Shown in pieces: positions 645 to 56,240 of a DNA stretch of 64,000 nt. Below the pieces are notes generated by a model. It ran no database searches, had not been told where the DNA came from, and saw nothing but the letters and a program-made list of their open reading frames with translations. The stretch lies in contig NC_091475.1 in the NCBI RefSeq assembly GCF_036971445.1, positions 195,052,001 through 195,116,000 of the forward strand, given 5' to 3'. Every line of letters begins with the position of its first letter. The first letter of the stretch is position 1. The position numbers and the translations under genes are program-made. This DNA comes from Narcine bancroftii (taxonomy: Eukaryota).

Positions 645-2800
645 TCAAGTCGAGTCAAGTTTATTGTCATCTGATTGTACAAGTCTTCTTTCTTTGGCTT
701 GGCTTCGCGGACGAAGATTTATGGAGGGGGTAAAAAGTCCACGTCAGCTGCAGGCTCGTTTGTGGCTGACCAGTCCGATGCGGGACAGGCAGACACGATT
801 GCAGCGGTTGCAAGGGAAAATTGGTTGGTTGGGGTTGGGTGTTGGGTTTTTCCTCCTTTGCCTTTTGTCAGTGAGGTGGGCTCTGCGGTCTTCTTCAAAG
901 GAGGCTGCTGCCCGCCAAACTGTGAGGCGCCAAGATGCACGGTTTGAGGCGTTATCAGCCCACTGGCGGTGGTCAATGTGGCAGGCACCAAGAGATTTCT
1001 TTAGGCAGTCCTTGTACCTTTTCTTTGGTGCACCTCTGTCACGGTGGCCAGTGGAGAGCTCGCCATATAATACGATCTTGGGAAGGCGATGGTCCTCCAT
1101 TCTGGAGACGTGACCCATCCAGCGCAGCTGGATCTTCAGCAGCGTGGACTCGATGCTGTCGACCTCTGCCATCTCGAGTACCTCGACGTTAGGGGTGTGA
1201 GCGCTCCAATGGATGTTGAGGATGGAGCGGAGACAACGCTGGTGGAAGCGTTCTAGGAGCCGTAGGTGGTGCCGGTAGAGGACCCATGATTCGGAGCCGA
1301 ACAGGAGTGTGGGTATGACAACGGCTCTGTATACGCTTATCTTTGTGAGGTTTTTCAGTTGGTTGTTTTTCCAGACTCTTTTGTGTAGTCTTCCAAAGGC
1401 GCTATTTGCCTTGGCGAGTCTGTTGTCTATCTCATTGTCGATCCTTGCATCTGATGAAATGGTGCAGCCGAGATAGGTAAAGTGCAGAGAACAAAACAAA
1501 GGACTCTACATCACCTTTGTTGACCTCACCAAAGCCTTCGACACCGTGAGCAGGAAAGGGCTTTGGCAAATACTAGAGCGCATCGGATGTCCCCCAAAGT
1601 TCCTCAACATGATTATCCAACTGCACGAAAACCAACAAGGTCGGGTCAGATACAGCAATGAGCTCTCTGAACCCTTCTCCATTAACAATGGCGTGAAGCA
1701 AGGCTGTGTTCTCGCACCAACCCTCTTTGCAATCTTCTTCAGCATGATGCTGAACCAAGCCATGTAAGACCCCAACAATGAAGACGCTGTTTACATCCGG
1801 TACCGCACGGATGGCAGTCTCTTCAATCTGAGGCGCCTGCAAGCTCACACCAAGACACAAGAGAAACTTGTCCGTGAACTACTCTTTGCAGATGATGCCG
1901 CTTTAGTTGCCCATTCAGAGCCAGCTCTTCAGCGCTTGACGTCCTGCTTTGCGGAAACTGCCAAAATGTTTGGCCTGGAAGTCAGCCTGAAGAAAACTGA
2001 GGTCCTCCATCAGCCAGCTCCCCACCATGACTACCAGCCCCCCCACATCTCCATCGGGCACACAAAACTCAAAAACGATTGTACAAGTACATCCTGATGA
2101 AACAATGTTCTCCAGTCCTCAGTGCAAAAACATGCAGACGTATAACTAGGCATAGGACACATACAGCCAAACAATACATATTCAGGACAAGTATTTCATC
2201 CATTTAAATGAATAAATATTGTTTTATGAATATGAGAGTGTCGGATGGTCATTTGGTCGTTCAGCGTTCTCATTGCCTGTGGGAAGAAGATGTTCCTCAG
2301 CCTGCCGGTGCTGGATCTGATACTCCTGCATCTCTTCCCCGGTGCGAGCAGTTGAAAAATGCTGTGTGCAAGGTGGAAGGGGGTCCCCAGTGAGTTTGTG
2401 TGCCCTCTTCAGACAACAATCTCGATAGATCACGTTGATGGGAGGGAGGGAGACTCCAGTGATCCTCTCTGCCACTCTTACGGTCCTATGGGTTAACCTC
2501 CAATCCATTTCTCTGCTGCAACTGTACCGCACTGTTATTCTGTCAGCCAGGATGCTCTCGATAGAACTCCTATAGAAGGTTGACCTAATGGTGACTGGTA
2601 GCCTTGCCCATTTCAGTCTTCTCATGAAGTGCAGTCACTATTGCACATTCCTGACAGGGATGGAGAAGTTGAATGTCCATGATGGGTCACTAGTTAAGTG
2701 AACTCCAAGGAACTTGGTGCACTCCACTTTCTTTACTATAATTATGTATAGTGGAGGGTGGTCATCCTGAAGTTCCATGATCATCTCCTTTGTCATTGAT
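645..2800 (-). mobile_element. Rex1/Babar LINE 3' fragment, interrupted by the RTE insertion at 685-2076
   Basis: Rex1-type tail (caagt-ttattgtcat) at ~645-684 resumes at 2089. ORF 2224-2625 (FYRSSIESILAD...) matches the Rex1 ORF C-terminus. Confidence 0.8.
685..2076 (-). mobile_element. RTE-clade LINE, 5'-truncated with 5' inversion (685-1481 minus, ~1480-2076 plus), 12-bp TSD
   Basis: Minus ORF 744-1499 is the RTE C-terminus (YLGCTIS...FPCNRCNRVCLSRIGLVSH). The plus segment encodes the RT core (FVDLTKAFDTVSR, GVKQGCVLAP, LFADD). TSD gattgtacaagt at 673-684 and 2077-2088. Confidence 0.95.
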
Positions 2801-2859
2801 GTATATTGCTCAGGATGTCAGTTGAAATCAACGATCTGAACAGTTCATTTCTGAGGAGA

Positions 2860-3190
2860 GATGAGAGAACCCAGGTCCATTCTCCCTTGAGCAGTGGAGG
2901 TTAAGATGGGGCATGTTTGAGGTAAAATTAGCAGAGTTCCAGTTAGTATAAACTGCAGGGAACTTTTCCCCAAAAATTGATAATTCTATAGGACATATAT
3001 TTAGGGTAAGGGAGAAGAGATTTAAGAAGGGATACAGGGTCTCTCGAATGCACTGCCTGAGAGAATGGTTGAAGATGGGTCACGAACAGGATTTATGAAG
3101 TGTCTGGGTGAACACGAATTGCTTAGTCATAGAAGGCTTTGATTAACAAGGGATTAAGTGCTGGGAATAGTATGGAAGAGTTGATTTACT
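2860..3190 (+). mobile_element. Old CR1 LINE 3' remnant
   Basis: Degenerate similarity to the 3' part of the CR1 at 26900-27300 (ttctcccttgagcagtggaggttaag...). Confidence 0.55.
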
Positions 3191-3200
3191 GTTTTGTAAT

Positions 3201-3637
3201 TCTTTTTTTGGCTTGGCTTCGCGGACGAAGATTTATGAAGAGGTATGTCCATGTCTGCTGCAGGCTCGTTGGTGACTGACAAGTCCGATGCGGGACAGGT
3301 AGGCACGGTTGCAAGGGAAAATTGATGGGTTGGGGTTGGGTGTTGGGTTTTTCCTCCTTTGTCTTTTGTCAGTGAGGTGTGCTCTTCGGTCTTCTTCAAA
3401 GGAGGTTGCTGCCCGCCGAACTGTGAGGCGCCAAGATGCATGGTTGGAGGCGATATCAGCCCACTGGCGGTGGTCAATGTGGCAGGCACCAAGAGATTTC
3501 TTTAAGCAGTCCTTGTACCTCTTCTTTGGTGCACCTCTGTCTCGGTGGCCAGTGGAGAGCTCGCCATATAACACGATCTTGGGAAGGCGATGGTCCTCCA
3601 TTCTGGAGACGTGACTCACCCAGCGCAGTTGGGTTTT
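3201..3637 (-). mobile_element. RTE LINE 3' fragment
   Basis: Highly similar to 685-1130; ORF 3233-3661 is the RTE C-terminus. Confidence 0.92.
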
Positions 3638-4350: not shown

Positions 4351-4440
4351 ATAGGCCACCAAAGACTTGAAGATTTCTAATGGTAAACCATGAAGAGCAT
4401 TGAAAAGGCTTTGTTGGGTAATCTTATCTGAAAGATGGCA

Positions 4441-4664
4441 TCTCTCCACTGGCCACCGAGACAGAGGTGCACCAAAGAAGAGGTACAAGGACTGTTTAAA
4501 GATATCTCTTGGTGCCTGCCACATTGACCACCGCCAATGGGCTGATATCGCCTCCAACCGTGCATCTTGGCGCCTCACATTTCGGCGGGCAGCAACCTCC
4601 TTTGAAGAAGACCGCAGAGCACACCTCACCGACAAAAGACAAAGGAGGAAAAACCCAACACCCA
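4441..4664 (+). mobile_element. RTE LINE internal fragment
   Basis: LSTGHRDRGAPKKRYKDCLK...RRKNPTP, near-identical to the other RTE copies. Confidence 0.9.
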
Positions 4665-45019: not shown

Positions 45020-47090
45020 TTGATCCTAGCTGTGCCTGACCTTTGGTTGGCAATGTGGAATAATGCTTGTTCCAAAACTACTCTGGCACCACTCTCCAAA
45101 TCTTTCTCTGTTACATTGATAATTGCATTGTCAATGCTTCTTGCAAATCCCTTCTTTGGCTTGGCTTCGTGAACGAAGATTTATGGAGGGGGTAAAAAGT
45201 CCACGTCAGCTGCAGGCTCGTTTGTGGCTGACAAGTCCGATGCGGGACAGGCAGACACGGTTGCAGCGGTTGCAGGGGAAAATTGGTTGGTTGGGGTTGG
45301 GTGTTGGGTTTTTCCTCCTTTGCCTTTTGTCAGTGAGGTGGGCTCTGCGGTCTTCTTCAAAGGAGGTTGCTGCCCGCCAAACTGTGAGGCGCCAAGATGC
45401 ACGGTTTGAGGCGTTATCAGCCCACTGGCGGTGGTCAATGTGGCAGGCACCAAGAGATTTCTTTAGGCAGTCCTTGTACCTTTTCTTTGGTGCACCTCTG
45501 TCACGGTGGCCAGTGGAGAGCTCGCCATATAACACGATCTTGGGAAGGCGATGGTCCTCCATTCTGGAGACGTGACCCATCCATCCTTGCAAATGTGCAG
45601 AACACATTAATCCTATCAGATTCACCACTGACTTCCATCCCAATCTCAAATCCACGGTCCATTCAGACCCTTCTCTTAGCTTCCTGGATCTCTTTATCTC
45701 CATCTCTGGAGACAAACAATTTGTTGACTTACTATAAACACTCTGAGCCATTGAGACTATATACCCCTTCTCACCCTATTTCTTGTAAGGATGCCATCCT
45801 TTTTTCTGTTTCATTGTCTCTGGCACATCTTGAGGGTTCAAGATGAGGCTTTCCATTCCAGGACATCTAAACTATACTCTTTTTCAGGAAAGAGAGCTTC
45901 CCTTTAAGTGCAATTGATATAATCCTCTCTCACATTCCCTCCATTTCTCATAGGTCTGCTCTCACCCCCCTCCTTCCTCCATACAGAACAGACAGAGGGT
46001 CTCTCTTGTCCTCACCTTTCTCTCTACTACATCCAACACATTATCTTTTGTCAATTCTGCCAGCTGCATCAGGATTCCATCACTAGCCATATGCTTCAAT
46101 CCAAACCCCTTTCTGACTTCCAAAGGAACTACTCTCTGCATGGCTTCCTAGTTTGCTCATTCTTTCCCACCCACCACTCCCTTACTCTGGCATTTTGCCT
46201 CCAAATACAGGAGGTACAACAGTTTTATTGGTACCTTTTCCCTCACCACCATTCAGAAATCTACAGAAACAAACCTAAGTGATGCAAATATTCATGTGGT
46301 CCTCCTCCAGCCTTGTTTACACATTTGGTGCTCCTGAGATGTCAAAATGAAGCACAGATTAGGCGAATAACTTGTGGAGCATTGTATTGTCTGGAATAGC
46401 CATCCTGAACATCAGGTTACATGCTATCTCAATGCCCCATTTCCATTCCCACTCTCATCTCCCCATCCTTGGTCTTAAATTAAATTTAGTCATACAGCAC
46501 ATGAATAGGCCATTCTGGCCCATGAACCTGTGCCACCCAAATGCCACAATTAACTTACAACCCCGTATATTTTGAAAGGAGGGAGGAAACCAGAGCACCC
46601 AGAGGAAACCCACGCAGACACAGGGAGAACATACAAACTCCTATAGACAGTGCTGGATCGCTATGCTAACTGTGCCACCCTTCTTCACTGCCAGAGTGAA
46701 GCACGATGTAAACTTGAAAAACAGCATGTCATATTCGACAACCCAGTGTTCAACTTCTCAATTTCAGGTACCCTGACCTCTGGTTTTCCCCTCTCTCTAC
46801 CGAGTGCCATTTGCTTATTTCTTTCTCTCGCCTTGCCTGCTTTCACCTATCACTTACCTGCATTTGTCTCCCAACTCCCTTCCTCCTCCCTTATCTGGCT
46901 CTTTTTGTCTGTCATCTTCCTCCTCAGTTCACCTATCACTAACTACCCCCTGTCCCACCCCTCCCCTTTCCTTCCTATCCTAGTTATCTTCCCTTTCCAC
47001 TCTAAGTTCTGAGGTCAAGTTTCAAACTACAAGGGCAACAATTCCTTTACTCCTGCAGATGCTGCTTGACGTACTGAGCTCTAGATTCAA
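45020..47090 (+). mobile_element. Penelope-like element (RT and GIY-YIG remnants), interrupted by RTE (45151-45583) and a SINE (46475-46680)
   Basis: Decayed YIDx motif at ~45110; FHPNLK...SFLDLFISISGD...SHPISCKDAI; endonuclease remnant at 46290-46385; pyrimidine-rich 3' region. Confidence 0.75.
45151..45583 (-). mobile_element. RTE LINE 3' fragment with TSD
   Basis: Nearly identical to 685-1121; TSD cttgcaaat at 45140-45148 and 45586-45594. Confidence 0.93.
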
Positions 47091-54994: not shown

Positions 54995-56240
54995 GGTCAG
55001 ATACAGAAATGAGCTCTCCAAACCCTTCTCCATTGACAATGGCGTGAAGCAAGGCTGTGTTCTCGCACCAACCCTCTTTTCAATCTTCTTCAGCATGATG
55101 CTGAACCAAGCCATGAAAGACCCCAACAATGAAGACGCTGTTTACATCCGGTACCGCACGGATGGCAGTCTCTTCAATCTGAGGCGCCTGCAAGCTCACA
55201 CCAAGACACAAGAGCAACTTGTCCGTGAACTACTCTTTGCAGATGACGCCGCTTTAGTTGCCCATTCAGAGCCAGCTCTCCAGCGCATGACATCCTGTTT
55301 TGCGGAAACTGCCAAAATGTTTGGCCTGGAAGTCAGCCTGAAGAAAACGGAGGTCCACCATCAGCCAGCTCCCCACCATGACTACCAGCCCCCCCCACAT
55401 CTCCATCGGGCACACAAAACTCAAAACGGTCAACCAGTTTACCTATCTCGGCTGCACCATTTCATCTGATGCAAGGATCGACAAAGAGATAGACAACAGA
55501 CTCGCCAAGGCAAATAGCGCCTTTGGAAGACTACACAAAAGAGTCTAGAAAAACAACCACCTGAAGAAACGCACAAAGATCAGTGTGTACGGAGCCGTTG
55601 TCATATCCACGCTCCTGTTCGGCTCCGAATCATGGGTCCTCTACCGGCATCACCGACGGCTCCTAGAACGCTTCCATCAGTGCTGTCTCCGCTCCATCCT
55701 CAACATTCATTGGAATTACTTCATCACCAACATTGAAGTACTCGAGCTGGCAGAGTCCGCAAGCATCAAATCCACGCTGCTGAAGACCCAACTGCACTGG
55801 GTGGGTCACGTCTCCAGAATGGAGGACCATCGCCTTCCCAAGATTGTGTTATATGGCGAGCTTTCCACTGGCCACCGAGACAGAGGTGCACCAAAGAAGA
55901 GGTACAAGGACTACTTAAAGAAATCTCTTGGTGCCTGCCCCATTGACCCCCCCACCAGTGGGCTGATCTCGCCTCCAACCATGCATCTTGGCGCCTCACA
56001 GTTTGGCGGGCAGCAACCTCCTTTGAAGAAGACCGCAGAGCCCACCTCACTGACAAAAGACAAAGGAGGAAAAACCCAACACCCAACCACAACCCACCAA
56101 TTTTCCCTTGCAACCGCTGCAACCGTGTCTGCCTGACCCGCATTGGACTTGTCAGTCACCAACGAGCCTACAGCAGACGTGGACATACCCCTCCATAAAT
56201 CTTTGTCCACGAAGCCAAGCCAAAGAAGAAGAAGAAAGAA
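54995..56240 (+). mobile_element. RTE LINE, 5'-truncated, (GAA)n tail
   Basis: GVKQGCVLAP, LFADD, through to gaagccaagccaaagaagaagaag; serves as the non-inverted reference for 685-2076. Confidence 0.95.

Follow-up and report, generated by a model that had tools for sequence, protein, structure and literature searches.

Here we describe a single 1.39-kb insertion of an RTE-type LINE in the 3.33-Gb genome of Narcine bancroftii, the front of which (approximately 600 bases) is flipped. The insertion occupies positions 673-2088 of the window, which is the whole 64,000-nucleotide stretch of contig C16 that was analysed. With a probability of about 0.85, it is interpreted as a co-insertional 5' inversion of a single-ORF RTE-type LINE, generated by twin priming with the element's own enzyme. 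The interpretation draws on the observed geometry of the insertion, its target site duplication (TSD), the junction sequences, the rate of inversion in the family and the junction statistics. Twin priming was reportedly proposed by Ostertag and Kazazian in 2001 as the model for 5'-inverted L1 elements. It is a known mechanism, met here in a clade for which the searched literature reports none. No report of 5' inversion in RTE elements was found among the titles and abstract openings covered, and within that scope the description of the event as rare, made in the original prediction, holds provisionally; "undescribed" would be an equally provisional label. What this analysis adds is the inversion rate, a control from another clade and statistics on the junctions.

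The two segments of the insertion lie on the strands originally assigned to them, the 3' part on the minus and the upstream part on the plus strand, and their coordinates were reproduced against a working family consensus of 3,584 bp built from fetched copies (Table 1). The 12-mer GATTGTACAAGT is present at both ends, in agreement with the claim of identical TSDs, and one TSD (12 bp in the window copy) encloses both segments, as one does in 17 of 17 inverted copies of the family sample. The inverted segment is upstream sequence; in RNA orientation, its 3' end lies directly against the 5' duplication and corresponds to a consensus position close to that at which the sense segment begins. What had been read as a short A overlap at the flip proved to be three As compatible with both segments. 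The approximately 10 nt said to be missing between the breakpoints are GGTCAACCAG (consensus 2779-2788), and the loss is 10 nt, or 9 nt with the G that opens the right-hand duplication assigned to the element. The A-run beside the right-hand duplication, absent from the earlier description, has five As against four in the consensus. The copy used there for comparison (54995-56230) is non-inverted and older, with 92.6% identity to the consensus.

The empty site was reconstructed by removing the insert and one 12-mer and was aligned to other copies of the older host repeat. Nine such copies (two within the window and seven from fetched loci) could be aligned over it, and none of the nine contains the 12-mer twice. 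The 12-mer is therefore a true duplication and not a chance repeat. In two of the nine a short deletion is found at or beside the 12-mer. The window copy differs from the consensus by two substitutions and one inserted base, which indicates that it is very young. It is dead and shows no sign of function. The Logan short-read contigs over 300-2500 and 1442-1520 are dominated by other copies, and among the matches listed there is neither a contig bridging a junction nor a clear empty allele. The window holds four more pieces of this RTE family, either fragments or truncated copies, at 3200-3632, 4435-4664, 45151-45583 and 54995-56230 (91-98% identity to the consensus).

Table 1. Coordinates of the inverted RTE insertion and its landing site in the window
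Feature	Position	Strand	Basis or remark
TSD at the 3' end of the element	673..684	-	ACTTGTACAATC on the element strand; identical to 2077-2088; single in host-repeat paralogues
Short GA-rich 3' tail AGAAAGAAG, 9 nt, no poly(A)	685..693	-	Similar tails in sampled copies
Non-inverted 3' segment	690..1481	-	Consensus 2789-3580, 100% identity (read from 1481 to 690); C-terminus of the ORF with Cys/His motif, and 3' UTR
AAA microhomology (3 nt) at the inversion junction	1479..1481	.	Junction alignment
Inverted upstream segment, reverse-transcriptase core	1479..2076	+	Consensus 2182-2778 with one extra A in the terminal A-run; 1479-2074 matches consensus 2182-2777 at 99.7% identity
Nonsense codon TAA for AAA in the RT frame	1765..1767	+	Window copy compared with consensus
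TSD at the 5' end of the element	2077..2088	-	Its 3' end is the putative second primer
TTT at -12 to -14 from the start of the duplication	2100..2102	-	T at -1, A at +1: RTE-type split target signature
Older interspersed repeat, the landing site	2089..2765	.	Continues left of 673; 72% identity to window 36734-37405

The family consensus has one open frame of 1,174 codons. Exo_endo_phos and RVT_1 domains are found in family copies, the latter in the region that matches the inverted segment of the window copy. Upstream of this frame, the long copies L067, L074 and L111, which are bounded by duplications, have no Met-started ORF of more than 22 aa, and no ORF1 was found. The anatomy is that of RTE elements (one ORF with an APE-type endonuclease and a reverse transcriptase, no ORF1), and so is the mode of insertion, with a short microsatellite 3' tail, short duplications and a split T-stretch target signature. 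None of three features of the L1 clade (an ORF1, a poly(A) tail and an A-run target) is present. From this anatomy, the clade of the family is probably RTE. The closest homologues carry no clade name; they are up to 82% identical, many are approximately 1,060 aa long with EN and RT domains, and their named hosts are amphioxus, shrimp, sea urchin, medaka and a carp. The exact 34-mer with the TAA stop of the window copy occurs in eight genomic copies on different haplotype backgrounds, so the stop looks recurrent. A defective sub-lineage mobilised in trans was considered for these copies and rejected, as the TAA is present in only the eight exact-pattern copies.

Copies of the family were located with an exact 34-mer marker situated 400 nt from the 3' end, which has 13,805 exact matches genome-wide. 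The first 100 listed marker copies were sampled (contig C1, 1.99-15.6 Mb) and were chosen blind to their 5' structure; the survey spans 14 Mb of a single contig and is confined to copies that extend at least as far as the marker. The count of TSD-flanked inverted copies against a family consensus, which had been proposed as a check, gave 17 simple inversions in the 100 copies (Wilson 95% 11-26%), or 19 with the addition of two cases that are not simple (11-28% for the combined 17-19%). These two are L132, which is complex, and L084, whose inversion junction contains foreign sequence. Extrapolation from this one contig suggests that the genome likely holds approximately 2,300-2,600 marker-bearing inverted copies (17-19% of 13,805). 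Breakpoints differ in all 17 simple inversions and no breakpoint pair is shared. The inverted pieces are 33-627 nt long and consist mostly of upstream sequence, for which only RNA could have been the template. The offset between the two internal breakpoints ranges from a deletion of 33 nt (+33) to a duplication of 90 nt (-90).

Inverted and non-inverted copies differ in their duplications. Under one strict rule, which allows the duplication to end from -1 to +5 nt relative to the inverted segment, a 10-14 bp duplication is found in 17 of 17 inverted copies versus 22 of 80 single-segment copies (Fisher p 1.4e-8). Looser rules detect some duplication in 41 of the 82 C1 copies that have no adjacent inversion (L084 included), the short ones among which may be chance matches. 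No duplication is detectable in 41 of the 82, 15 have a short one (5-9 bp), 14 have a full duplication joined directly and 12 have a full duplication with extra bases. This distribution suggests that, outside inverted copies, the upstream target end is frequently shortened.

Some copies have a more complicated structure. L132, L161 and L178 are complex copies of three segments, for example an inverted piece followed by two overlapping sense pieces. L084 (2134-4597) is inverted and has a 12-bp duplication, with approximately 520 nt missing and approximately 235 bp of L1-like sequence between the segments. This L1-like piece is 75% identical to the young L1 reference and was either captured at the junction or inserted later. 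In the pairs L007/L137 and L008/L138 the same inverted insertion, with flanks 99.9% identical, is found on contigs C106 and C9; the pairs represent a duplicated or haplotype scaffold.

The geometry originally taken as the hallmark of twin priming, namely a duplication, a flipped upstream piece and a sense piece, recurs in the 17 copies with distinct breakpoints and excess microhomology. The excess was measured against a simulation that combined real target sites with random consensus positions. Microhomology between the target end and the internal site has a mean of 1.8 versus 0.60 simulated (15 of 17 copies scorable, p 1.5e-4). At the inversion junction the mean is 2.25 versus 0.66 simulated (12 of 17 scorable, p 5e-5), and the window copy has 3 nt. 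When unscorable copies are set to zero, p is 5.5e-4 at both junctions. The target end compared with the far-end sense sequence gives a mean of 0.71 at the best placement. Complementarity between the TSD end and the internal priming site, put forward earlier as a way of checking the mechanism, is thus positive family-wide and weak at the window locus, where primer and RNA pair over one base beside the slipped A-run, or, on a reading without slippage, two bases are untemplated. Inserted bases (3-25) are found at 5 of the 17 inversion junctions, and one extra base at 2 of the 17 5' junctions. The inserted bases, along with snap-back-like pieces in several truncated copies, suggest that host end-joining or repair also acts. 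The extra bases at the 5' junctions of L037, L050, L056, L066, L088, L100 and L124 include antisense element pieces of 8-18 nt. L037 is a micro-inversion with a long slipped T-run and breakpoints almost equal to those of the window copy; most of the other extra-base 5' junctions look like snap-back.

At the target sites of the 17 inverted copies, position -12 is T in 16 cases, position -1 is T in 16, and position +1 is A in all 17. No A-run follows the cut, and 22 non-inverted copies have the same target profile. The RTE split signature and the lack of an ORF1 in long copies make the element's own machinery the likely agent. The earlier proposal that RTE-clade machinery twin-primes is supported by the family rate, the junction statistics and this target signature. 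Genomic footprints cannot name a polymerase, and we infer both its identity and the order of events.

In the proposed model, the element endonuclease would nick the bottom strand between T and A, approximately one helical turn from the T-stretch, and the reverse transcriptase would start at the GA-rich tail of the RNA. The minus-strand segment at 690-1481 would be the resulting first-strand cDNA. The top strand would be cut 12 nt away with this cDNA still unfinished. The freed 12-nt 3' overhang could anneal, through one base or a few, to that same RNA at a point just beyond the first enzyme (consensus approximately 2779) and prime a second cDNA, with one slip on the A-run. The plus-strand segment at 1479-2076 would be this second cDNA, primed from the other target end. 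Its synthesis would stop at consensus 2182, the RNA would be removed, and the cDNA ends would be joined via three complementary bases with a loss of 9-10 nt.

Two other LINE families of the same genome were surveyed as controls. One, presumably CR1-like to judge from its sequence, has 3,907 marker matches and was scored by the RTE rule against a single reference copy, the near-full-length element at window 23574-27345 (+). No inversion was found in 70 copies of this family, which appears older (mostly 85-97% identity to its reference copy), and the difference from the RTE family has a p of 2.5e-5. The 5' end is in view in 41 of the 70, and 29 extend past the 1.48-kb view; a 5-kb view of 40 copies also contained no inversion. 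With only copies whose 5' end is in view, the comparison is 19 of 90 for RTE versus 0 of 41 for CR1-like (p 8e-4). The other control is a young L1-like family with EN and RT domains and 3,800 marker matches. It has one inversion in 27 copies scored at 30 loci, with 20 out of view, which is too few to compare (p 0.07 versus RTE). A decayed L1-like element is also present in the window at 20770-23068 (-).

Twin priming predicts pairing between the target end and an internal RNA site, and between the two cDNA ends (PMC2912911). The inverted share among duplication-flanked RTE copies is 17/58 (simple) to 19/60, approximately 30%, versus 30.9% of 2,068 human and chimpanzee L1 insertions (PMC2912911), under detection rules that differ. 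As in L1 of these two species (PMC2912911, PMC4245944), the order is duplication, inverted upstream piece, sense 3' piece and duplication. The small deletion or duplication at the flip, the microhomology at both junctions and the full-length duplications of inverted copies, as opposed to the often short ones of truncated copies, are shared with L1 as well. Unlike L1, the RTE family has one ORF, no ORF1 and a GA-rich tail instead of poly(A). Its target is T at -12 with the cut between T and A, and not an A-run, and its duplications are 10-14 bp versus 14-16 bp. The family resembles the RTE-clade LINEs of PMC6007223 in its A-containing microsatellite tail, a duplication starting with A, the T at -1 and a T-stretch approximately one helical turn upstream, although the stretch peaks at -12/-13 here and at approximately -10 there. 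A peak of 10-12 bp is given for RTE duplications (cited in PMC4245944).

In the literature consulted, 5' inversion is treated as nearly exclusive to L1 (PMC2912911) and as dependent on L1 and human host factors. L2 and RTE elements are described as forming U6 chimeras by template switching only (PMC4476161), and in PMC6007223 twin priming appears only in the reference list. Inversions were seen only with L1 in human cells in PMC4245944, with the exception of a single 5'-inverted insert of zebrafish Nimb-2_DR in chicken DT40 cells, and an overhang of approximately 5 nt was proposed there to be too short to prime. The RTE family is like Nimb-2_DR in that a non-L1 LINE with duplications of roughly 12 bp can yield an inversion. 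Unlike that one event in a heterologous assay, inversion affects 17-19% of native RTE copies. Five short extra-base junctions are like the snap-back inserts made with R2 protein, in which antisense element sequence is joined to the upstream target (PMC11371274). R2 snap-back copies within the cDNA, whereas the inverted 0.6 kb of the window copy lies upstream of it.

Several other explanations of the insertion were weighed. The same footprint might have been left by another enzyme: a host repair polymerase, such as polymerase theta, could have extended the top-strand overhang on the RNA, or the cDNA could have snapped back during repair. Inserted and repeated bases at 5 of the 17 inversion junctions would fit such an origin, as would the 8-18 nt antisense pieces from inside the sense segment at the 5' junctions of L056, L066, L088, L100 and L124, which resemble R2 snap-back junctions (PMC11371274). 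We nevertheless regard it as improbable. Snap-back copies only sequence already in the first cDNA, whereas the inverted pieces of the window copy and of the 17 are mostly upstream sequence of up to 627 nt, and CR1-like inserts face the same host repair with 0 of 70 inverted. It is less probable still that an L1-type protein of the same genome mobilised the RTE RNA in trans and twin-primed it. The young L1-like family, with its EN and RT domains and its one inverted copy in 27, could have supplied the protein. However, the GA-rich tails, the 10-14 bp duplications and the target of the inverted copies, with T at -12, a cut between T and A and no A-run, are those of the non-inverted RTE copies, and the split signature that PMC6007223 describes for RTE-related elements is said there not to be reported for L1-clade elements.

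Nothing specific speaks for an ordinary 5'-truncated insertion with a front part flipped by later genomic rearrangement. The Logan contigs leave room for an uninverted allele at the window locus, but such an event would need one breakpoint at the duplication edge in 17 of 17 copies. Moreover, it is the antisense internal site that the target end matches (1.8), whereas the sense far end, where a rearrangement predicts the match, gives 0.71, and two substitutions and one inserted base leave little time for it; we give it very little weight. An assembly artefact in a high-copy repeat is just as doubtful. The public short-read contigs listed include none that bridges the junction, and L007 and L008 reveal at least one duplicated region in the assembly, yet exact 10-14 bp duplications, the target signature and excess microhomology at 17 distinct sites are not what a misjoin would produce, and misjoins would not spare CR1-like repeats. 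The least credible of all is re-mobilisation of a source element that was already inverted. The common end of six top matches in the first search, the window copy included, at consensus 2777 could point to such a source, but the other breakpoints and the duplications of these copies all differ, the first search was biased to 5-A ends, and the 17 unbiased copies have no common breakpoint pair. Twin priming by the RTE element's own enzyme is the reading we prefer.

The balance tips slightly towards a broader view, in which the element, and not a mammalian host, sets twin priming. An RTE LINE without ORF1 or poly(A) would twin-prime at the frequency of human L1 (approximately 30% of TSD copies), and would do so only with a full 10-14 nt overhang, and a CR1-like LINE would not. 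If this is true, whether a LINE clade inverts would be decided by how long its staggered cut is. An RTE family with an inversion rate like that of L1, next to a CR1-like family that does not invert, tests the overhang-length idea within one genome. The data suggest that an ORF1 protein and poly(A) are dispensable for inversion and that second-strand cleavage often precedes completion of the first strand in RTE elements. The thousands of near-identical copies form a large junction set for studies of second-strand cleavage. Annotation tools would score each inverted insertion as two elements.

A priming hot spot at the A-run (consensus 2774-2777) was also considered. The shared end at 2777 came largely from search bias, in that the first search favoured copies with the rare 5-A end of the query. 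Two end-of-match patterns were compared, one at the A-run and one at a control position (2802). The A-run gave seven clear inverted ends and one break without a sense part in view in 30 examined of 133 matches (approximately 31-35 genome-wide). The control gave one clear and one possible case in 30 examined of 278 matches (approximately 9-19), a third break there being an internal deletion. Any priming preference at the A-run is at most modest, two- to four-fold with a wide error.

Runs X6 and X12, which are labelled as other organisms, contain approximately 0.4 of the words of the window, and X6 is near-identical over the element only. These matches and the homologues of at most 82% identity in marine invertebrates and fishes are hints of horizontal transfer or contamination. 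The 5' leader of the long copies L111, L062 and L130 is a variable GC-rich tandem repeat, 876 bp long in L111, and the beginning of their ORF contains a short tandem repeat. Two near-full-length copies of the family, L061 2600-6185 (-) and L133 5324-9138 (G000:C9, approximately 304.34-304.35 Mb), lie head to head approximately 460 bp apart and are 98.9% alike across the 1.7 kb compared.
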